Made by a program: the position numbers and the translations under genes
From: a virus
Strand: one strand, 5' to 3'
Length of the DNA stretch: 64,000 nt
Virus record (IMG/VR): IMGVR_UViG_3300045988_102159
Coordinates: 64,001-128,000 of that record
Part shown: one piece after another, positions 22,659-52,719 of the stretch
Position numbering within the stretch: the stretch's first letter is position 1
Layout: every line of letters begins with the position of its first letter
The notes under the pieces: model-generated
Databases searched by the model: none
What the model saw: the letters and a program-made list of their open reading frames with translations, nothing else
Told to the model about the DNA's origin: nothing

Positions 22659-22679
22659 AGGGTCAGAGTCTTTTCACCA
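22659..22679 (-). CDS. Major tail protein, micro-exon 3 (~19-21 nt, GEKTLT)
   Basis: GGUGAAAAGACUCUGACCCU lies between the 3' end of intron B and the P1 of intron C. The frame from GGU through exons 4 and 5 is exactly 292 codons. The 5' boundary is uncertain (22676-22679). Confidence 0.6.
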
Positions 22680-22911: not shown

Positions 22912-22935
22912 TTCCCAGGCGATTAGACGAGGATT
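22912..22935 (-). CDS. Major tail protein, micro-exon 2 (~24-30 nt, NPRLIAWE..)
   Basis: AAUCCUCGUCUAAUCGCCUGGGAA starts directly after the omega-G of intron A (22936). It continues exon 1 in frame (..YAQGGKG-NPRLIAWE). The 3' boundary is uncertain (22906-22912). Confidence 0.6.
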
Positions 22936-37487: not shown

Positions 37488-38576
37488 TTATTTCTTTTTA
37501 GATTTGCGGCACTCACGACATGTAGAATAGAAGCCATCTTTCGCGGAATTATTCTTTGAGAAGAATAAAGGATGTGCCAACTTGGTCTTTCCGCATTTGC
37601 CGCACTTTTTCCATTGTCCATATTCCACATTTGTGTAATACCACATAACATAATTCTTTTGAGCCTGTTCCGCAATCATCTTTGGAATCTTTTTACGCCA
37701 TAGCGTTGAAAAATATTGTGCTGTATGTGAAACACCATATTCAGCTTCCATCATGCCGCATATCTCATCATTCGATTTTCCATCAATCTTCCATATTAAA
37801 AGGTCATACAGCATAGATGTTGTTTGGTCTTTAGATTTAAAGGTCTGTTCAATTAAATTCTCAAGGTCTAGAAGCTCCCAATGCATATCACAATTAAGGT
37901 CAGTATAGCATTCCTGCTTGATTGATGAATAATATGTTAGTAAGAATGAAATGTGGACTGGGTTGAATAATGAAATAACTCCATCGGATACAGGATAACC
38001 ACGTGAATCGAAATAAATCTTCTCAGACAAGTCCATATGCGCCATGTTCTTTAGCTGCGCTGAAACCTTCGACTTTGCGGGCCAGCCCTTGACTGATTGC
38101 TTTAGTAAATACATTTGCTGATATGTCTCGATAATCTGCTTTTTCAGGTAATAACGTTGCTTACCAGTAGCAGAAAGAAATTGTCGTTTTAGTGATGTGA
38201 TGATAGAATCGAATTCCTGCATACCTGGGATATTCTCTAAGTCATCTTCTGAGATAGTATCTTTATTATCTAGTATTTGATTCTTATCGTTATTGACGAG
38301 TGCGTAGATGCCATCCTCGCCATTCTCCATATTTTCAACCATTTCCTCAAAAGAAATCTGTCGTTTGTTTACTGTTGCTTCTCTATTCTTTGTGATAATA
38401 CTACGTTCTTTTTTCTTTTCCTTTTTGGTTTGATTTCTGTCTGCGGCAAAGAGCAAATAATCTGTCATAACACGCAGATAATTTGCATCTAGATTCTCTT
38501 GAGAAGTGGTTTCAATGGTTTCCCGCACACATTTAAGTCGTTCTTCCTGTGTCTTCAATGTGTAATCAAGTGCCAT
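37488..38576 (-). CDS. Putative DNA-binding regulator (sigma region-4-like HTH) with C-terminal zinc ribbon (362 aa)
   Basis: First gene of the leftward late operon. Segment ...GKSNDEICGMMEAEYGVSHTAQYFSTLWRKKIPKM... resembles a sigma-70 region 4 HTH. C-terminal CGKCGKTKLAHPLFF...CRECRK. Confidence 0.4.
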   Translation of the reverse strand: MALDYTLKTQEERLKCVRETIETTSQENLDANYLRVMTDYLLFAADRNQTKKEKKKERSIITKNREATVNKRQISFEEMVENMENGEDGIYALVNNDKNQILDNKDTISEDDLENIPGMQEFDSIITSLKRQFLSATGKQRYYLKKQIIETYQQMYLLKQSVKGWPAKSKVSAQLKNMAHMDLSEKIYFDSRGYPVSDGVISLFNPVHISFLLTYYSSIKQECYTDLNCDMHWELLDLENLIEQTFKSKDQTTSMLYDLLIWKIDGKSNDEICGMMEAEYGVSHTAQYFSTLWRKKIPKMIAEQAQKNYVMWYYTNVEYGQWKKCGKCGKTKLAHPLFFSKNNSAKDGFYSTCRECRKSKKK

Positions 38577-38616
38577 ATCTTTACTTCTCCTTTTCTATTG
38601 GTTTTATTGCAACTAT

Positions 38617-38645
38617 ATTATACCACAAAAAAGTATGAAGTGCAA
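38617..38645 (-). promoter_or_regulatory. Sigma-70-type promoter of the leftward late/packaging operon
   Basis: -35 TTGCAC (rc 38640-38645), 17-bp spacer, -10 TATAAT (rc 38617-38622), with a T/A-rich upstream region. Confidence 0.6.
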
Positions 38646-38699
38646 GTTTGTCAAGAAAAAATTTTAAATATTTTAAAAATTTTTTCTATGTATATTATA

Positions 38700-39300
38700 T
38701 TTAAGTATGCGGCAAATGTGATTACCGTTTTTTGCCCATAAAATGATTACACTCGCTAGTTTGCTCCTAAAATGATTACACCTACGATTGGCCGCATCAG
38801 TAGTGCTGTTATAAGTTGCCGCTCGCTTCGCTGCCCTCAGCGAGCGCAACGGCAGACTATTTGTTTTTTCTATTGGAAAAAACTTGAGCGTAGCGAAAGT
38901 TTATAGCGAATGGCGCTACGTAGTAGCGACAATCGCCTAGTGCTGTATTGGATATACTTAAAATGGATAGAGATGTACCTATAAAGATGTATAGAAAATT
39001 CTGCACGATTACCCATGCTCACTCTCCCCTTGCATGAAACCTATTGGATGTGCTACTTTTCTAAGAGTATCCTATCCCCTCTGTATGCGGCACGGTAGAG
39101 ATACCGTTCGTCTCCTGTAAACTAATAAACCAACGCAAGACCGCTTGGCTACAGAAATATTCTACTGCAAGTGAGAGTACATCCATACTTCTCACGGCAG
39201 AATAAATCTGTAACGTTTAAGACCCAGCTATTCACCTCATTGGGGATTTTTGATTTAGGATAGCTCCTAAGCCGACTGGGAACGGCGCTATGGTTAGTTT
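38700..39300 (-). ncRNA. Candidate large structured non-coding RNA or structured operon leader (~600 nt)
   Basis: No credible ORF. Downstream of a perfect consensus promoter. At least 7 GC-rich stems sit in AT-rich context, e.g. GTTGCCGCTCGCT...AGCGAGCGCAAC at 38817-38857, ACGGTA-gaga-TACCGT near 39093, and a ~70-nt imperfect hairpin at 39152-39222. A G.U pair favours the minus strand. Confidence 0.3.
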
Positions 39301-39307
39301 AAAATGT

Positions 39308-39336
39308 ATTATAATAGATAATTAGATATTTGTCAA
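39308..39336 (-). promoter_or_regulatory. Perfect consensus sigma-70 promoter, leftward
   Basis: TTGACA (rc 39331-39336), 17 bp, TATAAT (rc 39308-39313). Confidence 0.7.
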
Positions 39337-39533
39337 TATCTTTTTCTATTGGCTTATGAGGAACTATCGTCCCTCTCTTGGGTTTTTATTCTAGCATATT
39401 TTTTTTGAAAAGTCAATGGTTTTGTGAAAATTTTTTTATGCGGACAATGCCATAATCGGAAATACCAAGAAAGCCAATAGAGGAAATAAATAAGAAAGGT
39501 ATTTCATTTTATGGAATTTGAAAAATCCTCTTA

Positions 39534-39614
39534 GGTCGTATTTTGGTATTTGAAAAAATGATTTTGGTCGGTATTTTGGTATTTCAAAAAATAACTGAGG
39601 TCGGTAATTTGTGC
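39534..39614. repeat. Three direct repeats GGTCG(G)TATTTTGGTATTT(G/C)AAAAAAT (~32-bp period)
   Basis: Copies start at 39534, 39566 and 39599 (the last partial). An inverted repeat GAAATACC/GGTATTTC lies just to the left (39454-39505). Confidence 0.7.
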
Positions 39615-39655
39615 AGGGCGGGGCGTGCCTGGCCAAAAACCGGACAAAAACCTAA

Positions 39656-41219: not shown

Positions 41220-41340
41220 AGTAAAGGCGTTGCCGCAAGTGGTAGCGCCTTTATTATTGTCTATCTCATGCGGAACAATCCAAGAGACAAAAGAGTATCA
41301 ATACAAACATAAATAGTCGAAACTTTTTAGTTGCGCTCAT

Positions 41341-41369
41341 GCGGCCAAAGTGCTATACTTTCAGTAAGG
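41341..41369 (+). promoter_or_regulatory. Rightward extended -10 promoter
   Basis: TTGCGC, 17 bp, TGcTATACT. Confidence 0.55.
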
Positions 41370-41396
41370 AAACTAACCAAGAGAAAGGATACAACA

Positions 41397-41705
41397 ATGG
41401 GCTATGATACGTATGAGCTTTGGTTTAATTGTTGTAGCTGTCTACTTATTCAAGAAGAAGAATTGGAAACAATTGCAGAACAGGTAAAGGACTATACAAA
41501 CAAGCACCCATATGATAATACTATTTCTGATATTTATGACACTACCCAAAATATACTGCAAGAGTTTTTAGAAAAGCAGATGACCGAAGTAATGCTTTCA
41601 TCTGGAGATGAAAGTAAGATAGAATATAATGCTGCGATTAGCCGAGATGATGAAACATTTTTGATATTTAAAGTATTAGACAAGATAAATGTTACTATTG
41701 AATAG
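41397..41705 (+). CDS. Hypothetical protein (102 aa)
   Basis: Track ORF 41331 trimmed to ATG 41397 with GAAAGGA RBS. A terminator follows. Confidence 0.6.
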   Translation: MGYDTYELWFNCCSCLLIQEEELETIAEQVKDYTNKHPYDNTISDIYDTTQNILQEFLEKQMTEVMLSSGDESKIEYNAAISRDDETFLIFKVLDKINVTIE

Positions 41706-41813
41706 ATTAAAACAAGGCGTTACTAAATAGTAGCGCCTTTATTTTGTTTAGAATAATTAAAGCACTTGCCGCAAACACTATAGTTCTTTAGTCTCATGAT
41801 ATGCGGCCTATGT

Positions 41814-41827
41814 TTCACGTGAAACGT
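41814..41827. repeat. Perfect 14-bp palindrome GTTTCACGTGAAAC (copy 1 of 4)
   Basis: Read directly from the sequence. Confidence 0.9.
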
Positions 41828-41955
41828 TAATAGCATCCTGAAACCATAACCAAGTGCCGCATAGTCAAGCAACTGTTTTAGTTGCTTTTGGTCTGATGCA
41901 ACTGTTTTAGTTGCTCTTCTGGTTGACCATGCAAAAAGGGCGAAGCCCACAAAAA

Positions 41956-42003
41956 GGCCATTTATGGCCGCGAAATTATACACCATGCGTACAGCTTTGT
42001 CAA
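41956..42003 (-). promoter_or_regulatory. Leftward promoter-hairpin cassette a
   Basis: TTGACA (rc 41998-42003), 17 bp, TATAAT (rc 41975-41980), then hairpin GGCCA-TTTA-TGGCC (41956-41969) followed by T's on the minus strand. Confidence 0.6.
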
Positions 42004-42200
42004 GAGTTTTTGACGAGATTTTTCAAAACTTTTTTCTCCACACAGTGCCCACAATCCCGAAACTGGGCATACTTTTGCATTCCATCGCATGGGACAAAAG
42101 CAGGTCTATTTTAAATTGCCGTCTTTTTTGCTTTTGCGCTGAAAATGACTTTTAATCTGATTTTGAAATTGAATCTGAAAATGATTTCTGATTTGAAAAT

Positions 42201-42263
42201 TGATTTTGAATCTGATTTTCAATTTGATTTTGAATCTGATTTTCAATTTGATTTTGAATCTGA
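42201..42263. repeat. 24-bp tandem repeat TGATTTTGAATCTGATTTTCAATT x2.6 within a wider degenerate array (42150-42265)
   Basis: Read directly. It is responsible for the DFESDFQF repeats in the spurious ORF 42145-42354. Confidence 0.85.
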
Positions 42264-42267
42264 AAAT

Positions 42268-42281
42268 GTTTCACGTGAAAC
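42268..42281. repeat. GTTTCACGTGAAAC (copy 2)
   Basis: Read directly from the sequence. Confidence 0.9.
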
Positions 42282-42315
42282 GCAAGCGCGCCGTAGGCGA
42301 AACTTAATCACAAAA

Positions 42316-42363
42316 GCCCATTTATGGGCAGAAAATTGTACTACCGCGATTTAGTTTTGTCAA
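42316..42363 (-). promoter_or_regulatory. Leftward promoter-hairpin cassette b
   Basis: TTGACA (rc 42358-42363), 17 bp, TACAAT (rc 42335-42340), hairpin GCCCA-TTTA-TGGGC (42316-42329). Confidence 0.6.
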
Positions 42364-42406
42364 GAACTTTTTTCAAAAAATTTTTTGGCGCACTTGCCGC
42401 CCGAGT

Positions 42407-42432
42407 CCAAAAAAAGGCTCCCCGAGGGGAGC
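42407..42432 (-). terminator. Terminator of the leftward 63-aa gene
   Basis: GGCTCC-ccgagg-GGAGCC followed by a T-run on the minus strand. Confidence 0.6.
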
Positions 42433-42442
42433 CTAGCCGAAC

Positions 42443-42634
42443 TTATGAAAATTGCTCTATGTTCTGGTCGATTACATTACGGATGGTGGTTAGCGCTTCA
42501 AGTATTTCGTCCTTCTGCTTTTGGATTATCTCGCGCTCGCGGTCGCTTTTGGCGTTAGCGTAGTTCGCCTGAGCCGAGTAAAGCATCCCGAGAAGGTCGA
42601 GGGTAGGCAGGCTTGCGAGGTTTTTGTCGATCAT
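42443..42634 (-). CDS. Hypothetical helical protein (63 aa)
   Basis: Track ORF trimmed to ATG 42634 with AAGGAG RBS. It has its own leftward promoter (TTGCGC, 18 bp, TATACT near 42680-42715) and a terminator. Confidence 0.6.
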   Translation of the reverse strand: MIDKNLASLPTLDLLGMLYSAQANYANAKSDREREIIQKQKDEILEALTTIRNVIDQNIEQFS

Positions 42635-42759
42635 TTGAAACTCCTTTAGTTTGTTCTTCCCAACTGACAAGGTCAGTATACACCTGCTAGGGCATGGTGC
42701 GCAATAGTTATTTTGAAAAAAGTTTCCCCAAAAGCAAAAAAGTTTTTAGAAAAAAGTTC

Positions 42760-42788
42760 TTGCGCTCGGTATAATGTTCCCTTATACT
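42760..42788 (+). promoter_or_regulatory. Rightward promoter of the early-cassette type
   Basis: AAAAAGTTCTTGCGC, 17 bp, TATACT. Same upstream half as the leftward early promoters. Confidence 0.6.
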
Positions 42789-42827
42789 ATAGTTGTAACG
42801 CAAGGAGCTAACCCAAAGGAGTTGCCA

Positions 42828-43010
42828 ATGTTCAAGAACAGCACAATGGCAAAGTGGTATGATATTGTCGAGGTCATTGCATGGATTGTCTATGCCGCAA
42901 CATTCGTCTGGTTCCTGCTCACGGATGCGAACGCTGCTGTAAATGCTAACTTATTAGCGGCTGCGTGGGCGTTTCCCATGCAAATGTACCGCGCCTATTG
43001 GAATTTGTAG
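42828..43010 (+). CDS. Small membrane protein (60 aa)
   Basis: ATG 42828 with AAGGAG RBS and a hydrophobic core. Confidence 0.55.
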   Translation: MFKNSTMAKWYDIVEVIAWIVYAATFVWFLLTDANAAVNANLLAAAWAFPMQMYRAYWNL

Positions 43011-43087
43011 AAAATATGGCGGTTGCAATAACCGCCATAATCTGATAGAATAATAAGCGTAGCGAAGCAACAAGGAAAGGAAATACT

Positions 43088-43558
43088 ATGTGCAACATTG
43101 ACAAGACCATCAAGGAGCTGAACACGGCTCTGGTTCTGCTTGACGCTTTTGGTGATGGGCATGAGTTCACTATGCACCATTATGAGGAACTTGCCGCAAC
43201 CGCCAACGAGCTTTTTGGTGGTCGTTACAGCGATTCAAACGTTTGCTATAGTGTTAGTTGGGTTCGCAAGCATCTAAACTATTTCGGCATTCATAAGACT
43301 GGTTCGCGTGAGATTGAAGTTATTAGTTCTCACAAAGTTTACAAGAGTGTTTATAGTGACTTTTTTAAGGGTATATACGATGGGAACAAAATTGATACTA
43401 AAACCGTTGAGCAATTCATTTACCGCATGGATGCAGTAGAGGACTGCAAGAACTTTATCAAGCGTCGCAAGGATGAAATTCGTTGTGAAATGGATAGAAT
43501 AGAAGCGACCATCGAGCGCGACAAGCAGCGTCTTGAAACACTCAAGAAAATGCTTTAG
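43088..43558 (+). CDS. Hypothetical protein (156 aa)
   Basis: AAGGAAAGGA RBS and a terminator. Confidence 0.65.
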   Translation: MCNIDKTIKELNTALVLLDAFGDGHEFTMHHYEELAATANELFGGRYSDSNVCYSVSWVRKHLNYFGIHKTGSREIEVISSHKVYKSVYSDFFKGIYDGNKIDTKTVEQFIYRMDAVEDCKNFIKRRKDEIRCEMDRIEATIERDKQRLETLKKML

Positions 43559-43570
43559 CAGATAGCAAAA

Positions 43571-43600
43571 CCGTCCATCTGAAAAGGTGGGCGGTTTATT
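43571..43600 (+). terminator. Intrinsic terminator (plus-strand specific)
   Basis: CCGTCCATC/GGTGGGCGG. The two U.G pairs become C.A mismatches on the other strand. Confidence 0.65.
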
Positions 43601-43614
43601 GTTTCACGTGAAAC
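43601..43614. repeat. GTTTCACGTGAAAC (copy 3)
   Basis: Read directly from the sequence. Confidence 0.9.
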
Positions 43615-43636
43615 GTTAAAGCACGCACACTCAAAA

Positions 43637-43684
43637 GCCCATAGTTGGGCAGAAAATTATACACGAGTACAAAACGTTTGTCAA
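43637..43684 (-). promoter_or_regulatory. Leftward promoter-hairpin cassette c
   Basis: TTGACA (rc 43679-43684), 17 bp, TATAAT (rc 43656-43661), hairpin GCCCA-TAGT-TGGGC (43637-43650). Confidence 0.65.
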
Positions 43685-43750
43685 GCGTTAAATTGAAAAA
43701 ACTTGAGAAAAATAAAAATAATTTTATCCCAAAATAATTAGGTTTTTCGC

Positions 43751-43778
43751 TTGCGCTCACACGCAAAGCGTGTATAAT
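43751..43778 (+). promoter_or_regulatory. Rightward promoter
   Basis: TTGCGC, 16 bp, TATAAT. Confidence 0.5.
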
Positions 43779-43818
43779 AATAGCTGTAAGCAAGCAAGGA
43801 ACAGAAAGGACTTGCAAA

Positions 43819-43923
43819 ATGTTTGAAACCATGAACCCCAACAGCCCGTACTTCTCTGATTACATTGATGAGCTTGAAGCCTACTACCCGGACGAACCTA
43901 TGGAATTCGATTTTGAGGACTAG
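43819..43923 (+). CDS. Small acidic peptide (34 aa)
   Basis: Below the ORF-track cutoff. Has a GAAAGGA RBS, its own promoter and the terminator GCCCGCCC..GGGTGGGC. Encodes MFETMNPNSPYFSDYIDELEAYYPDEPMEFDFED. Confidence 0.45.
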   Translation: MFETMNPNSPYFSDYIDELEAYYPDEPMEFDFED

Positions 43924-44191
43924 GACAAGTAACCAACATAAAGCCCGCCCGAAAAGGGTGGGCTACCTTTTACAAGAAAGGCTAAAGTATGGGCGATTTT
44001 GAAAATTGCAATTCTTATGCGGAAGTGTGCGCTTGTATTCTAGGTAAGTTCGTAGGGCTTGCTGCCAAATACAGCATCTTTTGGTGGGTAGGTAAAATAA
44101 TCCTAGGACTATAAAAATTAGGCGGATTGGGTATCCTAATCCGCCTTTTTATGTTATACTTGGGTCGTAGACCAAGAGAAGGGATAGAATA

Positions 44192-44374
44192 ATGTATTAC
44201 CTCAAGCGTGACAACACCAAAGACTTTAGCATTGATAAATACAAATGCTACGATTCGAGCGCTCCACTTGCGGCGCATAAGGCAAGGGCACAAGAGATAG
44301 TCGAGTACGAACGCACAACGTGCGAGGTCGTAGACGATAGCGGCAACGTTGTATTTGTCGCATTAGCTCATTGA
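44192..44374 (+). CDS. Hypothetical protein (60 aa)
   Basis: GAAGGGA RBS and the terminator AAGGCGCT-ttat-AAGCGCCTT followed by T's. Confidence 0.6.
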   Translation: MYYLKRDNTKDFSIDKYKCYDSSAPLAAHKARAQEIVEYERTTCEVVDDSGNVVFVALAH

Positions 44375-44706
44375 TTCTAAGGCGCTTTATAAGCGCCTTT
44401 TTATTTGCCGCTTTGGTTGCACCAATGCGCGTAGGCATTTTATCAAATGGCACCTTGTAGGCGATTCGGTCACAACTTGACCGAGTTGTTTTTTTTATGT
44501 ATTCGCGTATTCACGCTCTCATGGTTTGACTTTTCGCTTGACTTATGTTACACTAAAGGATTAGACCAAAAGACTTATGGAGGAATTGTGTGCGGCAAAT
44601 TGATACTTGCCAAACTAGGACGCTTACCGCATAATAATAGTTGTCCAAAGGCGAGGGCGTAAGAGTAACAGGTAGTTACACGCCCGAACGGGGACAGGAG
44701 GTTACT

Positions 44707-44943
44707 ATGTTGTATCTGGTTTCGGTTAGCGGCGTTAGCGCGGGTGAATCGCTTGACGATTACGAGAACTTTATCGTTGAAGCTGATAGCGAGAAAAAAC
44801 TTGCCGCTGCTATCGTTGCTGACCGTTTGGATGGCATGGAGTCGAAAGAACTTGACGGTTCTGTTTGGCGCGTGCGTGAGTTGGGCGAAGAGTTCGACTA
44901 TAACGTTAATCTTGAGTACGTTTGCAAGGGCGAACGTCTTTAG
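44707..44943 (+). CDS. Hypothetical protein (78 aa), GC-rich paralogue of 45001-45252
   Basis: ATG 44707 with GGAGG RBS. Shares MLYLV...FIVEAD..K.LA.AI...W.VRELG..F...G.RL with the next gene. Confidence 0.6.
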   Translation: MLYLVSVSGVSAGESLDDYENFIVEADSEKKLAAAIVADRLDGMESKELDGSVWRVRELGEEFDYNVNLEYVCKGERL

Positions 44944-45000
44944 TTTTATTTAAAAGGCGGGCGAAACAAAGCCCGCCTACTTTAAAAATTGGAGTTTATT

Positions 45001-45252
45001 ATGTTGTATTTGGTTTGCCATGATACTATTGATACCGTCAACGAATTTATTTGTGATGATAATAATTATTTTATCGTTGAAGCTGATAACGATAAAGAGC
45101 TTGCAACCGCAATTGCTAACGTTGCGATTGAGTATGATTGGTGTAGTGATGCAACAGGAATCGATACTACTTGTTGGAACGTTCGAGAGCTAGGCGATAA
45201 CTTTGAGTTTCAAATTTTTTCGCCCAAGACGTTTGACGGCAAGCGTCTTTAG
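45001..45252 (+). CDS. Hypothetical protein (83 aa), AT-rich paralogue of 44707-44943
   Basis: ATG 45001 with TGGAG RBS; terminator. Confidence 0.6.
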   Translation: MLYLVCHDTIDTVNEFICDDNNYFIVEADNDKELATAIANVAIEYDWCSDATGIDTTCWNVRELGDNFEFQIFSPKTFDGKRL

Positions 45253-45305
45253 TTGAAAAGGGTAGGGCGTAAGCCCTACCCACTTTTGAAAGTGGATACA
45301 GATAG

Positions 45306-45548
45306 ATGAAAAAAATTGTTGCGTGGGAAAACGTGCAATACGTTGTTTTATTCCTTACAGTGGTTGGGCAGATTCTTATTGGCGTTAACTACTTTTTAGG
45401 CCAAGGTACGTGGTTACTTGCAAATGTTATCACTGTTACGCGAAACGTTAAATTAGACCGTCCAAGAGCTGATAAAGTGCAAGGTTGGTTTATGTTTGCA
45501 CTAACGTTTGGCCTTATTGCCGCAAACGCTTTTATTCAGTTGCACTAA
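45306..45548 (+). CDS. Small membrane protein (80 aa, 2-3 TM)
   Basis: ORF track; hydrophobic segments. Confidence 0.55.
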   Translation: MKKIVAWENVQYVVLFLTVVGQILIGVNYFLGQGTWLLANVITVTRNVKLDRPRADKVQGWFMFALTFGLIAANAFIQLH

Positions 45549-45616
45549 TCGCAAACATTTGATACAATAAAGGATGTGGAGCAAACGTTCCACGTCCTAC
45601 TATCACAAGGGAATAA

Positions 45617-46099
45617 ATGAAAGCAATTGTATTAGACCTTGATGGCGTGCTTGTTGATTTTTACAACGTCAACGGTTGGTTGTCTATGTTGCAAGCGGAA
45701 AACGCGGCGCCTTATTTAATCGCAAAACCGTTAGGCGATTACAAGAAACTAAACGGTTTACTTGCCGCGTTGCAAGGCTACGGTTACGCGGTCGAGGTCG
45801 TTAGTTGGTTGGCAAAGGGCGAAACGTCTAAGCAATTTGATAGCGCGGTACGTAAGAACAAACTCGCATGGTTGCGCAAATATTATCCTGCTATTAACTT
45901 GAAGAATGTTCACGTTGTCAAGCATGGTACAAACAAATGGCGCGTATCAAACTACAAGGGCGGCATTTTGTTTGACGATGAAAGCGGCAACGTACACGCA
46001 TGGCAACGTGATACGTCAAGCGGCAAGGCGGTACGTATCAAAGACGAAACTACTTTGCTAGACGCGCTAGAGTCTCTTATTATCCAAGAGCTAGAATAG
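45617..46099 (+). CDS. HAD-superfamily phosphatase, 5'(3')-deoxyribonucleotidase-like (160 aa)
   Basis: Motif I DLDGVL at residues 7-12 and a later ILFDDES motif. Size fits NT5C-like phage enzymes. Confidence 0.55.
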   Translation: MKAIVLDLDGVLVDFYNVNGWLSMLQAENAAPYLIAKPLGDYKKLNGLLAALQGYGYAVEVVSWLAKGETSKQFDSAVRKNKLAWLRKYYPAINLKNVHVVKHGTNKWRVSNYKGGILFDDESGNVHAWQRDTSSGKAVRIKDETTLLDALESLIIQELE

Positions 46100-46129
46100 A
46101 GTTAGGGGAGCGGCAACGCTTCCCTTTTT

Positions 46130-46143
46130 GTTTCACGTGAAAC
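46130..46143. repeat. GTTTCACGTGAAAC (copy 4)
   Basis: Read directly from the sequence. Confidence 0.9.
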
Positions 46144-46156
46144 ATTAAAACCGTTA

Positions 46157-46202
46157 CGCCATAGTTGGCGGCGATTTTACCACAACACGCAACCAAAAGC
46201 AA
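46157..46202 (-). promoter_or_regulatory. Leftward promoter-hairpin cassette d (degenerate)
   Basis: TTGCTT (rc 46197-46202), 17 bp, TAAAAT (rc 46174-46179), hairpin CGCCA-TAGT-TGGCG (46157-46170). Confidence 0.45.
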
Positions 46203-46417
46203 GAGAAAAATTAGAAAAAGTTTTTTATTTTCTCGCGTGCGGCACGTCATAAAAGTGCTATACTAACCTTAGTCGGGAGGACAACGGCACTTAAATAGCC
46301 CACTCATTATGACTTCGGTGTTGGCGCATTCTGCTCCGACCCCGGCGTTTGCTACGCAAACGGCGACACGTTCTCTACAGTTAGGTACCTTGAGTTAGCT
46401 ATAGTTAATTTTTATAC

Positions 46418-46446
46418 TTGACAAATTATGAATTTTATGTTATGAT
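46418..46446 (+). promoter_or_regulatory. Promoter of the free-standing HNH gene
   Basis: TTGACA, 17 bp, TATGAT. Confidence 0.6.
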
Positions 46447-46467
46447 TATTGACAAAGGAGGTAAATT

Positions 46468-46974
46468 ATGGTTTTATCAAAAGAATATCCAGACAACAAA
46501 AATTACATAATTTATTCAGATGGACGTATTTATTCTAAATGTAGTAGCATTTTTCTTAAACCTAAAATAGATAAAGCAGGTTACGCAAATGTTACGTTTT
46601 GCGACAAAGGAAAAAGACGATATTTTAAAGTGCATCAATTAGTGGCAAAAATGTTTATACCAAATCCAAACAATTATGACCAAGTTAATCATTTAGACGA
46701 AAACAAATTAAATAATGACGTTTCTAACCTTGAATGGTCAACGCCTTATTTAAATTCAAATTATGGTACTAGAAATAAGCGAATTGGCATTACTCTAGCT
46801 GTTCCTATTTTAATGCTAGACAAAGAAACAAAGCAACCACTTAAACGTTTCGGTGGCATTGCAGACGCTGAAAAATGGTTAGCTAAAAAAGACGGACGCA
46901 GTAACATAATTGCTGCTCTAAAAGGTCGTAGACCTTATGCTTACGGTTTTTGTTGGAAATATGTAGAGCAATAA
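46468..46974 (+). CDS. Free-standing HNH homing endonuclease (168 aa)
   Basis: AAGGAGG RBS. NUMOD4-like N-terminus, HQLVAKMF...VNHLDENKLNNDVSNLEW core and a C-terminal HTH-like tail. AT-rich insert with the same architecture as the intron-encoded enzyme. Confidence 0.75.
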   Translation: MVLSKEYPDNKNYIIYSDGRIYSKCSSIFLKPKIDKAGYANVTFCDKGKRRYFKVHQLVAKMFIPNPNNYDQVNHLDENKLNNDVSNLEWSTPYLNSNYGTRNKRIGITLAVPILMLDKETKQPLKRFGGIADAEKWLAKKDGRSNIIAALKGRRPYAYGFCWKYVEQ

Positions 46975-47046
46975 TCAGTTGACGCAACAACGCAAAACGC
47001 TATACTAGTTAGTGTAATCAGTTAAGCCTAAGCGAAAGGTTTTAAA

Positions 47047-47760
47047 ATGGCTAACTTCTGTGTTTTAGACTGTGAAACTTGTACAACTGTCAACCACAAA
47101 GACGGCAAGGCTCACCCCGAAACGTCTTTGGTGTATGACTTTGGTTACACCATCCGCGACAACGACAACAACGTTATTCGTGAGCGCTCATTTGTTGTAA
47201 CGGATACGTTTTATCAAGTTGACCTAATGAAAAGCGCTTACTATGCCGACAAAATCCCGACTTATTATGAGGGTATCAAGTCGGGCGAATGGGTTGAAGC
47301 GTCTTTCAATGAGGTTTGGCGCACGTTCAAAGCTGATTGTAAAGAGTGCAACGTCAAAAGCGCGTGGGCTTACAATTGTAGGTTTGACGAAATAGCGCTA
47401 AACAATACGTTGCGCACGTATTCAAACGGTTTCGCTACATGGTTCATGCCTTTCAAGCTACGACTGAAAGACATTTGGGACTACGCAAGTAACATTACTA
47501 GTTCCAAGCGCTATTTAAAGTATTGCGTAGCAACGGGAGCCTTTACACCTAGCGGAAACCCTTCAACTAGCGCTGAAAGTGTTTACCGTTTTATCAACAA
47601 TGAGCACGACTTTACAGAAGACCATACGGCACTTTCAGACGCGCGTATTGAAGCGGCTATTTTGCTTGCGGCAAAGGCAAAGCACAAAAAGACGCGCCAT
47701 AGTTCGCGTGGTCAAGGTTGGCGAGACGCAAGCACGGCATTTAAGGCGCTCGACCTTTAA
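47047..47760 (+). CDS. DEDDh (DnaQ-like) 3'-5' exonuclease (237 aa)
   Basis: ExoI VLDCET, ExoII AYNCRFDE, ExoIII HTALSDA. Confidence 0.6.
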   Translation: MANFCVLDCETCTTVNHKDGKAHPETSLVYDFGYTIRDNDNNVIRERSFVVTDTFYQVDLMKSAYYADKIPTYYEGIKSGEWVEASFNEVWRTFKADCKECNVKSAWAYNCRFDEIALNNTLRTYSNGFATWFMPFKLRLKDIWDYASNITSSKRYLKYCVATGAFTPSGNPSTSAESVYRFINNEHDFTEDHTALSDARIEAAILLAAKAKHKKTRHSSRGQGWRDASTAFKALDL

Positions 47761-47976
47761 ACGAATGGGGAGCCTAACGGCTCCCTTTTCTTTTGCCATG
47801 AGTAAAGGCGATTCTAGCGCTCTAGAGCGTGCGGCAAGCACTTTATTTAAAATAAGGACTTTGACCAAATGGCACCTTAAAACGCGTCTCATGGCTTCTA
47901 TGGCGATATTTTTTTATTTAGGTACCGCATTATCCGGCAAGAAGTTAGCTACAGTTAACACCGCTTAAATCGGCTC

Positions 47977-47990
47977 TCATGGCTTCGTTA
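47977..47990. repeat. Perfect 14-bp palindrome GTTAGGTACCTAAC (copy 1 of 2)
   Basis: Read directly. TTAGGTACC half-sites also occur near 46381, 47920 and 49566. Confidence 0.9.
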
Positions 47991-48041
47991 GGTACCTAAC
48001 TAATCAAGCAAAGTTTGCCATTGGTAACTTTGGATTTAAAA

Positions 48042-48057
48042 GTTTACCCAGGTAAAC
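48042..48057. repeat. Near-palindrome GTTTACCCAGGTAAAC
   Basis: Read directly. Followed by CTCC, as in the 49765 copy. Confidence 0.85.
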
Positions 48058-48067
48058 TCCATCAAAA

Positions 48068-48117
48068 CGCCATTTATGGCGCAAAAAATTTTACACCCGC
48101 CACCATAGTTTTGTCAA
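48068..48117 (-). promoter_or_regulatory. Leftward promoter-hairpin cassette e
   Basis: TTGACA (rc 48112-48117), 18 bp, TAAAAT (rc 48088-48093), hairpin CGCCA-TTTA-TGGCG (48068-48081). Confidence 0.55.
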
Positions 48118-48154
48118 GCACTTTTTTGTCTACATTTTTTCTACATATTTCCTA

Positions 48155-48243
48155 TTTGAAACGCTTCAATTATTGAAACGCTCTAAAAAGTTACCCTAGG
48201 GTAACGCTGATTGAAACGCTTCAAGTTTTAAAACGCTTTAAAT
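48155..48243. repeat. Four direct repeats T(T/A)(G/A)AAACGCT(T/C)(C/T)AA
   Basis: Copies lie near 48155, 48172, 48209 and 48227, flanking the 16-bp palindrome. Confidence 0.8.
48190..48205. repeat. Perfect 16-bp palindrome GTTACCCTAGGGTAAC
   Basis: Read directly from the sequence. Confidence 0.9.
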
Positions 48244-48284
48244 GCACTTGTTTAAACAACCGTAGCTCCGAGGTTGGGTTCAAA

Positions 48285-48314
48285 ATTTTACACCCACCTG
48301 ATTAGGTTTGTCAA
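48285..48314 (-). promoter_or_regulatory. Leftward promoter f
   Basis: TTGACA (rc 48309-48314), 18 bp, TAAAAT (rc 48285-48290), 10-A upstream tract. The hairpin is poorly conserved. Confidence 0.5.
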
Positions 48315-48627
48315 CAATTTTTTTTTTGTAATTTTTCGTTTTGACCACAAACTTTTCACAACCTGAAACTCAAATTTTTTTATGCAAGATTTGCCGCAAA
48401 TGGCCTGATTCTATTCATTTTGCTTTGTCTGGCTACAGTGCCGATATTTTGAGAATCTGAAAAAACTAGGCTATTTACCTGGGGTTTCCATATTTTGAAC
48501 ACAATTTTTAAAATAGTTCTTGCCAAAAAGTTTATGCAAGCGTATAGTAATAGTTGTCCAAAGGGGACAGAGAAAAAAGAGCCGAACGGCGGCTCGCTCG
48601 CGTCTCGGGGACAGATTGGGGTTAGCT

Positions 48628-49056
48628 ATGGCTACCACTCGCACCAAGTTCCAGTTCACCGACTACCAGATGTTCGCGGCTCTCGTGAACGTCGCAGGCG
48701 ATATCTCGCCCGAGGTCATTGCCAAGGCTTTGGGGGATAACTATGACCCCGAGAAGCACACGCCTGAGAGCCTTGCCCGCAAGGTCTCGCATAAGTTCCA
48801 TGTTCTCAAGGAGAACGCGACCAAGCCCAAGGCCCCGAGCAAGACGGCACAGCTGAATAAGGCGCTTGCCGAGCAGGTTGCTGCTGAGTTCGCGGACGGT
48901 GAGCCGTTCACGCTTAATGACGTGATGGCAAAGCACCCAGCCGATATCAAGACGTTTAGCAAGGCGGGTGTTGTGGTGAACGTACTCCTTGCCGAGAAGC
49001 GTGTCCGCAAGGCGGCACCTATCAACAACAAGACCGCCTATGTTATCGTAGCGTAG
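48628..49056 (+). CDS. GC-rich winged-helix-like protein (142 aa)
   Basis: Track ORF 48520 trimmed to ATG 48628. C-terminal pattern ...KAGVVVNVLLAEKRVRKA..NNKTAYVI resembles 50858-51187. Confidence 0.5.
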   Translation: MATTRTKFQFTDYQMFAALVNVAGDISPEVIAKALGDNYDPEKHTPESLARKVSHKFHVLKENATKPKAPSKTAQLNKALAEQVAAEFADGEPFTLNDVMAKHPADIKTFSKAGVVVNVLLAEKRVRKAAPINNKTAYVIVA

Positions 49057-49131
49057 CCGTCTATAGGGTGGGGGAGATAATCCCCCACCCACTACCCAAG
49101 CACCTATAAAACAGCATAAGGACGGTCACGT

Positions 49132-49398
49132 TTGGAATCCTACAGACGTAACGCGCTAATTGCAGCATTTGGCGAGCTACCCGACAAAGAGTTGCAATGC
49201 CTAGGGCGCGGGCTAGAAGCTCACCACGTAAACAGCATGGCAAGCGGAAACGTAGTTTTGCTACCTTGCGAGATTCATAAAGTGGTTCACACACTAACGC
49301 AATTGGGCGGTAACGCCTACGCGAGCGGTGAGATAGAGAACGCCGAAACGCTCACCAAATGCGCACAAATGCTATTAGCGCAATTTACAATAAAATAA
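49132..49398 (+). CDS. Small HNH-motif protein (88 aa, TTG start)
   Basis: EAHHVNS...GNVVLLPCEIHKVVH; AAGGA RBS; terminator. Confidence 0.45.
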   Translation: MESYRRNALIAAFGELPDKELQCLGRGLEAHHVNSMASGNVVLLPCEIHKVVHTLTQLGGNAYASGEIENAETLTKCAQMLLAQFTIK

Positions 49399-49413
49399 CA
49401 CAATTAAATAAAT

Positions 49414-49444
49414 AACCCCACCGGGTAGGTGGGGTTTTCTTTTG
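49414..49444 (+). terminator. Intrinsic terminator
   Basis: AACCCCACC/GGTGGGGTT followed by a T-rich tail. Confidence 0.7.
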
Positions 49445-49553
49445 CGTTTAATTCCTACTAAAAAGGTAGGAAAAAGATCGCCCTGCCCAGCACAAACGCG
49501 CGAAAAAGTCAAGACTTTTTGAAAAAATTCACAGAAATTCCATAGTTGGGTCG

Positions 49554-49583
49554 ATTTTACACGATTAGGTACCTTATTGTCAA
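49554..49583 (-). promoter_or_regulatory. Leftward promoter g
   Basis: TTGACA (rc 49578-49583), 18 bp, TAAAAT (rc 49554-49559). Remnant hairpin CCATAGTTGG lies to its left. Confidence 0.5.
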
Positions 49584-49791: not shown

Positions 49792-49805
49792 GTTAGGTAC
49801 CTAAC
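49792..49805. repeat. GTTAGGTACCTAAC (copy 2)
   Basis: Read directly from the sequence. Confidence 0.9.
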
Positions 49806-49845: not shown

Positions 49846-49874
49846 TTGACAAATCAATAATTGTATAGTATAAT
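49846..49874 (+). promoter_or_regulatory. Perfect consensus sigma-70 promoter, rightward
   Basis: TTGACA, 17 bp, TATAAT. Confidence 0.7.
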
Positions 49875-50374
49875 ATAATAGAGTAATACTATACAATAAT
49901 ACCATATTTGGGACTGCCGCCGCCGTTGCGCCCATATGGCGAAATTGTGTAGAAATGGGGACTATATGCCAAGAGCCTATAAAATCCTAAAACGAAAGTC
50001 AATCCTAAAATTAAATAAAAAAATCCCTCCACACCTATATAGTGAGAAGGGACAGAACTACCATATGTATATGCCAAGAGAACGTTCTAAAATGAATTTT
50101 AATCGTTTTTTGCGTACCCCTGTACGGCATAAGAAAAATAAGTCTATTTGTCTTGATTCCTGCGGCCAGTAGAAACTCAAAACTAATCGTAAAAGACTTT
50201 AGGCTCACACAAACCAAGAGACAGAAGAAAAAGAAGCGTGCGGCACATGCCTTTTGTAAGTGAAAATTAATGCGGAAATGTGACTAATTTAGTTACATTT
50301 AAAAAGTGTTTTTTTAATATATGTTTTTACTAAGGTATAAATTACACATTCCTGCCCAAAAATTTTGGCCGCAT

Positions 50375-51290: not shown

Positions 51291-51370
51291 AATGAATTTG
51301 GTTTTGAAAATGAAAACCGAAATGAAACTCAAAATGAAATTGAAAATGAAATTCAAAATTGAATTTCAAA
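51291..51370. repeat. 12-bp periodic AAATGAAA array (phased A-tracts)
   Basis: AATGAAA occurs at 51309, 51321, 51333 and 51345, plus degenerate flanks. Confidence 0.75.
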
Positions 51371-51590
51371 ACCATTTTTATAAACCAATAGCGCGTTGGA
51401 ATCGAAAATTAAAAGGGTTGGGCTAGATTTTTTTCTTGACATTTGTTTGCTGAACTGGTAAAATGCGCCACTTCAACAAACCACCTCATGTAATCATTTC
51501 CTACCTTATATGGGCTTTCTTCACAGCTTTTGGACTCTATTCAAGACCAATCTTTCATCATTTTTCACGCAGTGAAAAACTAGCGAAGCA

Positions 51591-52442
51591 TCATTTTATA
51601 TCATCGCAGAAATTACCAAGCTCTAATTTCTTATTGGAAAGTGCAAGTATAGCATTCACCTTATCTTTATCCTTGTCACGGTCTGCGAACCTTGCGACAA
51701 ACTTCAACCAAGCATCTCCCCTCTCTTCATCCATTAACAGATAATGCTCTCTAACCTCTTGCAAAGTCATATATCCTAAATCTGTATAGACTTTCATTTC
51801 TCTCAGCGTATTCTCAATAGATTCCTTCTGCGCACGAGCATAATCATTTACCCTATATAGTTCAGTATAAAGACCTTTCTTTCCTTTGCGATACACAGCC
51901 TTCTCCGCATACTCAATAAGACCAACATCTCTAAGTACGATAAGGAATTCATCTACTCGGCGAATATTCCTCGCATCCTTATAATATCCAAGAGCCTTCA
52001 AAATCTCTGTACGAGAAAAGAAATAATTCTCACCGCCCTCGAAGAACGCTTTATGAAGCTGATACCACCTTTTAAGATAACAATATGTCTTGAAGCAATC
52101 CGCACTCAACGCACTAAGACAAAACCTAACTGTATCCACTGGAATCGTAACATACTGCCCTTCCACTGGCTGCACTATAACATTCATGCCATTCATCTTA
52201 ATAACTTCTAAAGATTCAAAGCAGCTCATGACTTTTCTAATCTGATAGTTGGTCAATCCTACACTTTTTAATCTGGCTCGACTATCCTGCATCGACAAAA
52301 TTCTTGTATTGTCTTTCTCTAACTTAGTATCTAACATGAGACTACCCATCGCATTGTAGTTACAATTTTTATTTTCCAACTTCTCAGGGTCTACGCTAAA
52401 ACTTAGCTTAGGCGCTTTATGATTTTCTTCTTTATCTGTCAT
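51591..52442 (-). CDS. Putative replication initiator / origin-binding protein (283 aa)
   Basis: AAGGAGA RBS and HTH-like segments. Its upstream region carries iterons. Function inferred from context. Confidence 0.4.
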   Translation of the reverse strand: MTDKEENHKAPKLSFSVDPEKLENKNCNYNAMGSLMLDTKLEKDNTRILSMQDSRARLKSVGLTNYQIRKVMSCFESLEVIKMNGMNVIVQPVEGQYVTIPVDTVRFCLSALSADCFKTYCYLKRWYQLHKAFFEGGENYFFSRTEILKALGYYKDARNIRRVDEFLIVLRDVGLIEYAEKAVYRKGKKGLYTELYRVNDYARAQKESIENTLREMKVYTDLGYMTLQEVREHYLLMDEERGDAWLKFVARFADRDKDKDKVNAILALSNKKLELGNFCDDIK

Positions 52443-52514: not shown

Positions 52515-52719
52515 GGTGTGCATTTTTTAACAGTTTTGAAGGGACTGGTGTGCATTTTTTAACAATTTTACCTTAACTGGTGTGCATTTTTTAACTTTCT
52601 AGCCACTCCTTTCACTTCGTTAAAAATTTAAGATTAAAAAATACCCACCAAAATACCTGCGAAAACTATAACTGGTGTGCATTTTTTAACCGTTTTGACA
52701 CTGGTGTGTATTTTTTAAT
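52515..52719. repeat. Five iterons (A)CTGGTGTGCATTTTTTAAC
   Basis: Copies at 52515, 52545, 52577, 52672 and 52701. Spacing is 32, 32, 95 and 29 bp. Confidence 0.85.

Follow-up and report, generated by a model that had tools for sequence, protein, structure and literature searches.

The closest described elements to those reported here are the promoter-early stem-loop (PeSL) elements of T4-like phages, mobile regulatory cassettes of ~100 bp that combine a strong sigma-70-type promoter, an AT-rich upstream region and a stem-loop (PMC2839356, PMC4122927). PeSLs are repeated between ORFan genes in a hyperplastic region, where homologous exchange shuffles gene modules; their stem-loop acts as terminator or attenuator for transcription started upstream of the element, and their promoter is followed by a Shine-Dalgarno (SD) sequence and a start codon and is co-oriented with the genes (PMC2839356). 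In this work we analysed 64 kb of a large tailed gut phage (positions 64,001 to 128,000 of IMG/VR virus record IMGVR_UViG_3300045988_102159; this whole stretch is called the window, and coordinates count from its first letter), a genome of ~140 kb of which ~76 kb lie outside the window, and we describe seven leftward promoter–hairpin cassettes, P1 to P7. These share with PeSLs the unit size, the promoter type, the AT-rich upstream region, the stem-loop and the signs of module exchange, since they lie between non-homologous flanks next to genes that mostly belong to no family, and chimeric copies exist. In contrast to PeSLs, their hairpin lies downstream of the promoter at about +1, neither an SD sequence nor an open reading frame (ORF) follows, and they are antisense to the flanking genes, so that a defining PeSL feature is lacking; nor are PeSLs associated with parS, the ParB loading site found beside several of the cassettes. 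Our favoured reading, held tentatively, is that the cassettes are conserved non-coding, self-limiting promoter units that may act in cis through RNA polymerase at module boundaries and beside predicted ParB loading sites.

Other systems share parts of this design. The lambda PR'-tR' unit, which works with Q, and the nut/boxB sites, which work with N, offer a strong constitutive promoter with a terminator shortly after it and a 5-bp-stem hairpin near the transcript 5' end. The cassettes likewise have a promoter-proximal terminator-like element, a 5-bp-stem hairpin near the 5' end and co-orientation with downstream late genes, and their hairpin, as read from the sequence, has the right size and a conserved top for a nut/boxB element, without a shared boxA or an N-like protein. 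They differ from lambda in that seven copies are dispersed antisense among other genes, in that the hairpin stands at +1 and not tens to hundreds of nucleotides downstream, and in that no boxA, no Q-binding element common to the spacers and no N- or Q-like protein was identified. In RK2, the KorA and KorB operators occur as pairs, and in the cassettes, similarly, at most tens of bp separate a strong promoter from a ParB-type site, and another small palindrome lies in between; here, however, the site is a chromosomal parS and not a KorB operator, the promoters drive no genes in this phage family, and no KorA- or KorB-like gene was found in the window. We take the resemblance to lambda PR'-tR'/nut and to the RK2 operator pairs as a possible lead, not as membership. 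ParB-family CTP clamps do act at promoters, as is the case for KorB/KorA of RK2 (PMC11790492), and chromosomal ParB is reported to repress promoters adjacent to parS (PMC5521831, PMC4488948).

Phage phi29 carries five parS sites and uses the host Spo0J/ParB for segregation into the prespore (PMC2731898). The window, putatively part of a lytic-type Firmicutes phage as well, resembles it in carrying several host-type ParB sites (five in phi29, four here), but the accessible part of the phi29 report does not describe its sites as coupled to dedicated non-coding promoters or hairpins (PMC2731898). Spo0A boxes (TGTCGAA), the other half of the phi29 strategy, occur five times in the window versus 7.1 expected and never at the cassettes. 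Finally, 5'-terminal stem-loops stabilise mRNAs such as E. coli ompA and papA and the B. subtilis aprE leader (references in PMC3997798). Cassettes of types A to D also begin, at the predicted start, with a stable small hairpin that leaves practically no 5' overhang; the known stabilisers, in contrast, protect long coding mRNAs, whereas here only a short non-coding RNA is predicted and the hairpin is followed by a U-run that should favour termination. Among open-access papers we found no description of gene-less antisense promoter–hairpin cassettes coupled to parS; the parts are known already, and the composite and its genomic logic appear new.

The cassettes lie in an island of small rightward genes (40.1–50.2 kb) between two blocks of minus-strand genes, the structural genes at 688–38576 and a small early-gene block at 50.4–64 kb. 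Each island gene has its own promoter and most have their own terminator, and most are without a Pfam or PHROG match, the exceptions being an HNH endonuclease and a deoxynucleotidase-like protein. The first-pass annotation of this DNA had placed seven leftward promoters here, and promoter-like sites are indeed present at all seven positions on the minus strand. A profile built from the cassettes (nhmmer) matched the 64 kb at exactly seven places, each of them on the minus strand and within 41.9–49.6 kb, and a strict composite (a −35 with at most one mismatch, 17–18 nt, TANAAT and, within 2–8 nt, a perfect GC hairpin with 5-bp stem and 4-nt loop) was found four times in the window versus a mean of 0.01 in 100 dinucleotide shuffles. 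The degenerate eighth copy that had been proposed at 49925–49972 was not detected by the profile and overlaps the start of a + strand ORF.

In each cassette an A-tract precedes a near-consensus promoter of the sigma-A type; a GC hairpin of small size begins at the predicted start or only a few bases from it, and a short U-run usually comes next. By the sigma-70/sigma-A hexamers at 16–18 bp spacing, P1 and P3 match at 12/12 positions, P2, P5, P6 and P7 at 11/12, and P4 has a poor −35. P1 (type C; 41948–42034, E = 1e-16) carries an A-tract, TTGACA at 42003–41998 and TATAAT at 41980–41975, then the hairpin GGCCA-TAAA-TGGCC (41969–41956) with five T and a second hairpin, GGGCTTCGCCC (41948–41938), again with five T. 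P2 (type B; 42311–42385, E = 6.5e-17) has TTGACA at 42363–42358, a 17-nt spacer, TACAAT and the hairpin GCCCA-TAAA-TGGGC (42329–42316), and P3 (type A; 43632–43717, E = 4.8e-18) has TTGACA at 43684–43679, 17 nt, TATAAT and GCCCA-ACTA-TGGGC (43650–43637), both hairpins being followed by TTTTG. In P4 (46156–46222, E = 2e-3) the weak −35, TTGCTT at ~46203, which is kept in 11 orthologues, is separated by 17 nt from TAAAAT, and CGCCA-ACTA-TGGCG (46170–46157) starts 3 nt past the −10. The remaining three combine TTGACA, 18 nt and TAAAAT: P5 (type D; 48061–48133, −35 at 48117, E = 1e-14) with CGCCA-TAAA-TGGCG (48081–48068) and TTTTG, P6 (48264–48329, −35 at 48314, E = 4e-6) with a decayed hairpin, and P7 (49530–49618, −35 at 49583, E = 4e-11) with only the hairpin core CCA-ACTA-TGG (49549–49540). 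P7 also has a palindrome, AAGGTACCTAAT, inside its −35/−10 spacer and a leftward terminator-like hairpin at 49436–49414.

The claim that these sigma-A-type promoter sequences have no gene behind them and point against the flanking rightward genes is supported, as every minus-strand ORF of at least 40 aa near a cassette starts upstream of the predicted start site. A mini-ORF reading was also considered, in which ATGG(G/C)NTTT would encode peptides of 3–5 aa in four of the five cassettes that have a hairpin and one of 25 aa in P1; no SD sequence precedes them, and we treat them as a side effect of TGG followed by a T-run. 

The hairpin had been described as following every promoter at once and as ending in a U-run, and both statements hold for part of the set. 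A perfect 5-bp stem with 4-nt loop is present in P1 to P5, whereas P7 retains three pairs (CCA/TGG) and P6 has no equivalent hairpin in the window (z ~0), its orthologues having GCCCC-AACCUC-GGGGC. Predicted RNA energies are −6.9 to −8.0 kcal/mol for the P2–P4 hairpins and −1.6 kcal/mol for the P7 stem, and P1 and P5, which were folded only jointly with their second hairpins, reach −13.8 and −14.7 kcal/mol. At least four T directly follow the hairpin in P1, P2, P3 and P5, in contrast to P4 (TAACGG), P6 (none) and P7 (only TTTCT). A terminator scan labels P1, P2 and P3 as terminator-like, with stems of just 5 bp and then 4–5 U. In types A to D the stem begins 5–6 nt past the −10, which is the very 5' end of the predicted RNA; in P4 and P7 it begins 2–3 nt past the −10, so that part of the 5' arm may stay untranscribed.

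The roles listed earlier for these promoters were open-ended and missed the most informative neighbour of the cassettes. The palindrome GTTTCACGTGAAAC has four perfect copies in the window (at 41812, 42268, 43601 and 46130) versus 0.16 expected, and all four lie 13–130 nt downstream of the hairpins of P1 to P4. Judged by its sequence, GTTTCACGTGAAAC is a canonical chromosomal parS, a predicted ParB/Spo0J loading site: the core is identical to the published B. subtilis consensus TGTTNCACGTGAAACA, that of S. pneumoniae being AGTTTCACGTGAAACT (PMC7022226, Table 1). With the flanks included, the match is 15–16/16 at three of the sites and 14/16 at parS-3. The first site, parS-1 (41811–41826, core 41812–41825), is ~130 nt downstream of the P1 hairpin and is followed by the bidirectional terminator (41714–41739) of the + strand gene 41331–41705; parS-2 (42267–42282, core 42268–42281) is 34 nt past the P2 hairpin; parS-3 (43600–43615, core 43601–43614) is 22 nt past the P3 hairpin and abuts the terminator (43568–43597) of the + strand gene 43088–43558; and parS-4 (46129–46144, core 46130–46143) is 13 nt past the P4 hairpin and adjoins the terminator (46104–46125) of the + strand gene 45617–46099. 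At P1, P3 and P4 the site is thus placed between the cassette hairpin and the terminator of the convergent gene.

The same order is kept in the relatives. The window and the loci of its family together have 37 perfect cores, of which a single one, at a locus edge, is not found downstream of a cassette hairpin. The full 16-mer is matched by 20 of these cores; two further family copies are the variant GTTCCACGTGAAAC, which fits the B. subtilis consensus TGTTNCACGTGAAACA. The distance from stem end to parS is 13–34 nt in types A and B. Measured from the end of the profile hit, parS follows after 6–30 nt in types A and B, after 93–124 nt in type C, behind the second hairpin and its U-run, and after 175–191 nt in most P4 orthologues, behind another terminator. 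The linker between hairpin and parS is free in sequence and length across relatives, and in one sub-lineage a gene is inserted between the two, with a mismatched stem.

Beside parS-2, the type-B unit of the window carries a 22-nt insertion (42282–42303) flanked by duplicated GTTTC, the gap between hairpin and parS in relatives being 13–21 nt. Directly leftward of parS-2, and thus downstream of it, lies an A/T-rich array with 12-nt periodicity (42140–42263, TGATTTTGAATC), which is kept after type-B cassettes in relatives; a second such array is present at 51307–51371 (AAAATGAAATTC). Bent DNA, iterons or an unwinding element are possible identities of these arrays.

P5, P6 and P7, which lack parS, carry a palindrome of another kind at the corresponding position. 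After P5, 9 nt past the hairpin, where P1 to P4 have parS, is AGTTTAC-CTGG-GTAAACT (48041–48058), whose arms are kept in nearly all relatives (one mismatch, one G.U) while the central 4 nt vary freely; P6 is followed by TTGTTTAAACAA (48248–48259) and P7 by a weak palindrome, TGAA-T4-TTCA. The P5 or the P6 palindrome could be the site of another ParB-like or other dimeric protein. The parS of Burkholderia chromosome II is gTTTATGCGCATAAAc (PMC7022226), and the outer arms of the P5 palindrome (GTTTA...TAAAC, 16 bp) are common to it. A further palindrome, TTAGGTACCTAA, is exact at 47988–47999 and 49793–49804, occurs with one mismatch at 49565–49576 inside the P7 −35/−10 spacer and is also found after D-type cassettes in relatives; it is probably the operator of some regulator.

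In order to follow the cassettes in relatives, a pattern scan of IMG/VR was used, which returned 35 loci of the same phage family, mostly on ~80–147-kb contigs from one metagenome, so that they stand for few independent events. About 30 related contigs carry cassettes, and orthologous types can be traced across them (A, B, C and D for P3, P2, P1 and P5, plus the P4, P6 and P7 types). Among 86 distinct family cassettes, the −35 is TTGACA in 67, TTGCTT in 11 and TTGACT in 7, the −10 is TAAAAT in 50 and TATAAT in 30, and 59 have a 17-nt spacer and 26 an 18-nt one, hexamers and spacing being nearly fixed; what varies from type to type is the sequence of the spacer, of the A-tract upstream and of the DNA downstream. 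The cassettes are often islands of similarity, as seen for P3 (43632 to ~43740, 85–94% identity in 8 relatives, with non-homologous flanks) and on the P4 side (46151–46261/46315, 85–96% identity, with unrelated flanks). Two loci (L014 and L020) carry chimeras with type B upstream and type C downstream, the crossover being in the hairpin loop.

The stems had been proposed to co-vary, and this was borne out by the 32 distinct hairpin sequences of the family: both outer pairs switch on the two sides together, the outermost being G-C in 14 and C-G in 9, and the next C-G in 10, G-C in 7 and U-A in 1. Paired cells amount to 87.5% versus 75.3% in shuffles, and the covariation score is 0.215 versus 0.064, a value that none of 500 shuffles reached. 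The further proposal, of selection for structure rather than for sequence, stands for these outer pairs only, as the inner CCA/TGG pairs are invariant (32/32) and the last loop base is the same in at least 90%. Because of this invariance, and because only two loops (TAAA and ACTA) are common, part of the element must be constrained in sequence, and the CCA/TGG core looks sequence-specific.

Pairing also depends on the neighbourhood. Unpaired rows at the two outer positions (7/32 and 13/32) are concentrated in cassettes without an adjacent parS: cassettes with parS within 260 nt have 5/5 Watson-Crick pairs, except one with 4/5, whereas those without it mostly have 3–4/5, apart from the D type and from a small number of loci cut off ahead of a possible parS. 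Where a lineage has its cassette away from parS, the two halves of the stem mutate independently (ACCCA/TGGAC, GCCCA/TGGAC, CGCCA/TGGAG, ACCCA/TGGAA). The first-pass annotation had named independent mutation of the halves in related genomes as counting against a structural role, and by that measure the relatives, in which cassettes are kept and outer pairs co-vary, nevertheless speak partly against a universal structural requirement. The sequences therefore point to a selection for pairing that is neither universal nor the sole constraint. A search with Rfam 15 over 38.5–50.4 kb gave nothing at the gathering score and two matches at chance level (E ~0.4), none at the cassettes. A role of the core in restriction or methylation was also considered: the window has 22 copies of CCA-N4-TGG versus 7.7 expected, those outside the cassettes are patternless, and no enzyme is known to us with such a site. 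A sigma-dependent pause element early in the transcript was discarded on inspection, since AACTAT agrees with A2/T6 whereas copies with the TAAA loop lack any such hexamer. A comparison of the strands was likewise set aside, since stem mismatches are mostly A.C on the promoter strand (G.U on the opposite one) but go back to ~3–4 independent events, which is not significant.

The arrangement recurs outside this family. A second scan of IMG/VR, for a consensus promoter with parS 15–45 nt downstream, returned 44 loci, among them a second phage family (L037–L068) with no tblastx or blastn match to the window. Downstream of a consensus promoter, family 2 has one or two hairpins (~6–14 bp, about twenty different sequences) ending 0–5 nt (once 10) before parS. 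In two loci that were read through, L038 and L061, the units face the 3' ends of opposite-strand genes, four of them in L038, and parS is followed by a terminator. From these sequences, the design appears to have originated at least twice, in phage lineages unrelated to each other. The opposite order, with parS before the promoter, was found in 10 loci, all different, and nearly all of these are ordinary gene promoters with an SD sequence and a start codon. The raw orientation bias of 44 versus 10 loci collapses to ~8 versus 10 families and was not used as evidence; what is notable in the sequences is a multi-copy, gene-less, convergent module in two lineages. Phass-1, a human-gut phage distantly related to that of the window, has four + strand consensus promoters, each followed by GC hairpins, in or beside its minus-strand early region (E from 2e-6 to 9e-5), and no parS in its full genome. 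We infer from these parS-less cassettes that the promoter–hairpin cassette is older and more general than its link with parS.

Some observations on these other phages stand apart. In family 2 (L038, L040, L047, L055 and others) the −10 of the parS-directed promoter lies inside a perfect ~25-bp palindrome, CCAAAATTATA-TGG-TATAATTTTGG, and the opposite strand also reads TATAAT, with −35 TTGGCG, which may represent two opposed promoters that overlap, or else an operator. In Phass-1 (OQ749652, L079–L081), at 130714–130804 and 132917–133008, consensus promoters face each other with predicted starts ~20 bp apart and a GC-rich hairpin between, and more than 20 minus-strand promoters share the palindromic spacer TAAAAAAATTTTTAT. 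Clostridium phage CPS2 (MH248069, L036), a phi29-like C. perfringens phage, has two perfect parS 25 nt apart in the intergenic region 582–620 between the DNA-polymerase and encapsidation genes, and this parS-pair match is found in at least five related C. perfringens phages (phiCP7R, phiCPV4, phiZP2, CPQ1 and CPS2).

Every cassette is placed where a rightward accessory-gene module has its 3' boundary and is directed back towards that module, and for this reason its transcript would have to be short. An RNA of ~22–25 nt would result if hairpin and U-run terminate; without early termination it would extend over ~85–300 nt to the terminator hairpin of the convergent gene (~85 nt in the predicted P3 unit), and from P2 and P6 into the next cassette. 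In four of the seven units (P1 to P4) the recognisable elements are the cassette hairpin or hairpins and a perfect host-type parS, and nothing else. What is conserved is the cassette, whereas the sequence past the hairpin can be exchanged; most likely, therefore, the promoter and the initial ~25 nt carry the function, which would be exerted in cis by way of RNA polymerase. The cassettes would then send a dense, one-way and quickly ended flow of polymerase against the site just downstream, marking the 3' boundary of a gene module; at parS, this flow would bound or gate the ParB loading site from one side, with head-on encounters between polymerase and ParB clamps, and the occupancy and spreading of ParB on phage DNA may be confined by, or coupled to, host transcription. 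As a by-product, the repeated conserved cassettes may double as homologous-recombination joints that shuffle gene modules. We infer from sequence that the host sigma-A holoenzyme would fire at the cassettes, where the RNAs would end, and that ParB would bind and interact with polymerase; because the phage encodes a sigma-factor-like protein of its own, the assignment to host sigma-A is putative and follows from the consensus match. The model accounts for how strong the promoters are and why they always point towards parS, for a hairpin and U-run so early in the unit, for the tolerance in spacing, and for the extra terminators, which in type C and P4 come before parS.

Several points weigh against this reading. 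A 5-bp hairpin would be a weak terminator, the U-run is absent from P4 and P6 and weak in P7, and in half of the D-type orthologues it is interrupted (UCUUGG). In P4 and P7 a normal start would fall inside the 5' arm, so that the whole stem could not form in the RNA, and for those copies the geometry favours a palindrome acting at the DNA level. The model does not explain the invariant CCA/TGG core. Three of the seven window cassettes, and those of Phass-1, have no parS, so the ParB link cannot be the general function and such cassettes are left with a generic boundary role. The hairpin–parS distance, from 13 to ~190 nt, argues against a single fixed steric mechanism, and by independent families the order promoter-then-parS is no commoner than its reverse (~8 versus 10). 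Among the ~35 window ORFs that were compared with Pfam, most of them from 39.7–64 kb, no ParB gene turned up. Finally, single cassettes have been lost by small deletions in two relatives (L021 and L006).

If the cassettes do fire, the strongest promoters of the 64-kb stretch would make no protein and would place RNA polymerase at module boundaries and centromere sites, as a new type of cis-regulatory or architectural phage element beside the PeSLs of T4-like phages. The parS link would mean that the phi29 precedent of a borrowed host segregation protein also applies to large uncultured gut phages and to another, unrelated family, and would offer a compact natural system for an open question of the ParB field, that of transcription versus ParB-CTP sliding clamps on DNA. 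On the practical side, the units may serve as portable, very strong, self-insulated promoters and as module-boundary landmarks for annotating mosaic phage genomes. A bolder version, which we consider rather improbable, is a transcription-gated centromere, in which a very strong self-terminating promoter is aimed head-on at a host-type parS and host RNA polymerase decides whether, and in which direction, ParB (and via it the SMC/segregation machinery) loads and spreads. Growing cells would keep parS cleared or confined, whereas starving or sporulating cells would let ParB take over, and the phage genome would be carried with the chromosome.

A different logic, doubtful in our estimation, is that of lambda PR'-tR' or nut: the promoters would fire constitutively and stop at the promoter-proximal hairpin and U-run until a phage factor, perhaps recognising the top of the CCA-loop-UGG hairpin, makes polymerase resistant to terminators, and leftward read-through would then silence the rightward accessory genes by collision and antisense RNA and enter the sigma-like gene (37488–38576) and the structural genes on the same strand. 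The terminator-like hairpin directly after the promoter fits this scheme, as does a conservation pattern like that of a protein-recognised hairpin, in which the top three pairs are invariant, the last loop base is near-invariant and the stem base co-varies; two quite different loops (UAAA and ACUA) would, however, have to be recognised, and in P6, P7 and numerous relatives the stem is degenerate. The sigma-factor-like, portal and structural genes run in the same direction as all the cassettes, and Phass-1 has the same topology, with its + strand cassettes inside the minus-strand early region and co-oriented with + strand structural genes. The family-2 units of L041 and L050 precede a holin-like gene and a lysin-like ORF (the latter recognised by eye only), like lambda PR'-tR' before the lysis genes. 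Read-through from P7, however, would have to cover ~11 kb, antisense throughout and past at least five strong terminators, and two consensus leftward promoters (39416–39388 and 39336–39308) already stand directly upstream of the sigma-like gene. Moreover, no candidate antiterminator, N- or Q-like, was identified, the downstream sequences have no boxA-like motif in common, and the tight association with parS is left unexplained.

Less probable again is that the cassettes are small non-coding RNA genes, with a strong promoter, a 5' stem-loop protecting against 5' exonuclease or 5'-end-dependent decay, a short body and the convergent terminator as 3' end. The B. subtilis spo0J/parB gene itself contains a parS, and the self-complementary parS in the P1–P4 bodies might pair with parS-containing host transcripts, or the RNA might be a decoy. 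Such genes would explain the strong promoter, its orientation, the multiple copies and the lack of an ORF. The predicted P3 unit, with its 5' hairpin, parS hairpin and 3' hairpin, folds at −27.6 kcal/mol (z −2.75), the P2, P4 and P7 units have z from −1.9 to −2.8, and 5'-terminal stem-loops are known stabilisers (reference list of PMC3997798). The layout of 5' hairpin then parS is shared by family 2, with a terminator next in the L038 and L061 copies. Yet the linker between hairpin and parS is conserved neither in sequence nor in length, most transcripts would be cut short at the U-run behind the first hairpin, and in types C and P4 the additional terminators would seldom let transcription reach parS. 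The 3' hairpins are those of the convergent genes, several (P4, P5) lacking a leftward U-tail, and no Rfam family matches. A perfect 14–16-bp match to a ParB site is also simpler at the DNA level, as documented for phi29 (PMC2731898).

We think it unlikely, more so than the RNA genes, that the hairpin is in fact a double-stranded DNA operator, NNCCA-N4-TGGNN, just past the start and bound by a dimeric phage or host repressor, or else a small cruciform or recombination site, its RNA structure being irrelevant. This would accommodate the invariance of CCA and TGG and of the last loop base, the persistence of the core where the outer stem fails (P7, CGCCA/TGGAG, GGCCA/TGGAG), the probable position of the P4 and P7 5' arms upstream of the start site, the mapping of crossovers to the loop and the richness of the region in other operator-like palindromes, one of them inside the P7 spacer. 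A symmetric dimer, however, needs no change of the outer two pairs on both sides together, the loops are not palindromic, and the about twenty hairpin sequences of family 2 exclude one sequence-specific protein there. No candidate regulator was found: the sole suspect, the ORF 49936–50172, is ruled out by in-frame TAG stops and frameshifts in relatives. This stretch (49846–50172, + strand) has a perfect promoter, TTGACA-17-TATAAT, followed by the 78-codon ORF; its DNA is still ~85–89% identical in relatives, and it is probably non-coding. Phass-1, the annotated relative, is filed under a 'code 15' (TAG-recoded) clade, and recoding may bear on these TAG stops.

Least of all do we expect the cassettes to have no function beyond that of PeSL-like homologous linkers spreading with modules, or to be replication primers or RNAP-titrating decoys, for although mosaic breakpoints coincide with cassette edges, chimeric cassettes exist and P2 points into the A/T-rich periodic array as a possible unwinding element, promoter hexamers and spacing are far better kept than a homology patch requires, the orientation is strictly fixed, most copies have no origin features beside them and fast-recycling promoters titrate little polymerase; the priming and titration roles put forward earlier thus find no specific support in the sequence data.

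The phage itself has no close cultured relative: a megablast against 50,697 phage records gave no match, and megablast and blastn of the cassette region and of the conserved leader at 38.6–39.45 kb gave none either, save one short exact match, the parS of C. perfringens phages. A scan of genome contigs for a host returned matches at chance level. The portal protein (31861–33462, minus strand) has 56% identity to an unannotated human-faecal phage fragment, 40% to Phass-1 and ~30% to ~140-kb Enterococcus phages. Leftward of the island, the nearest gene (37488–38576, minus strand) matches PHROG 5767, annotated as a sigma factor (E = 2e-41), and has no Pfam match. Upstream of it is ~1 kb of non-coding DNA (38600–39650), without an Rfam or phage blastn match, in which 39001–39313 is 94–96% identical in 8 relatives against 70–85% in its flanks, and a 33-nt tandem repeat occupies 39512–39611. 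This stretch could be a long structured leader, a non-coding RNA or a packaging site.

Further features of the window lie apart from the cassettes or merely adjoin them. The HNH endonuclease gene (46468–46974, region 46316–47046) adjoins P4, has its own consensus promoter and is present only in some relatives, behaving, as far as its distribution suggests, as a mobile insertion. Three group I introns (Rfam RF00028, 61–80 bits) are clustered on the minus strand of the structural-gene region at 21536–21767, 22443–22668 and 22698–22916. Direct repeats of 32 nt with the core GTTAAAAAATGCACACC are located at 52515–52700, just upstream of a 283-aa gene (51591–52442, minus strand), and look like replication-origin iterons. 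Finally, the motif CCAAGAGA(A/G)GG recurs between promoters and start codons on both strands (for example at 44170–44190, 41375–41395, 39375–39385 and 50775–50760), and a similar leader, CCAAGCAAACAAGG, precedes one gene in the family-2 locus L038.

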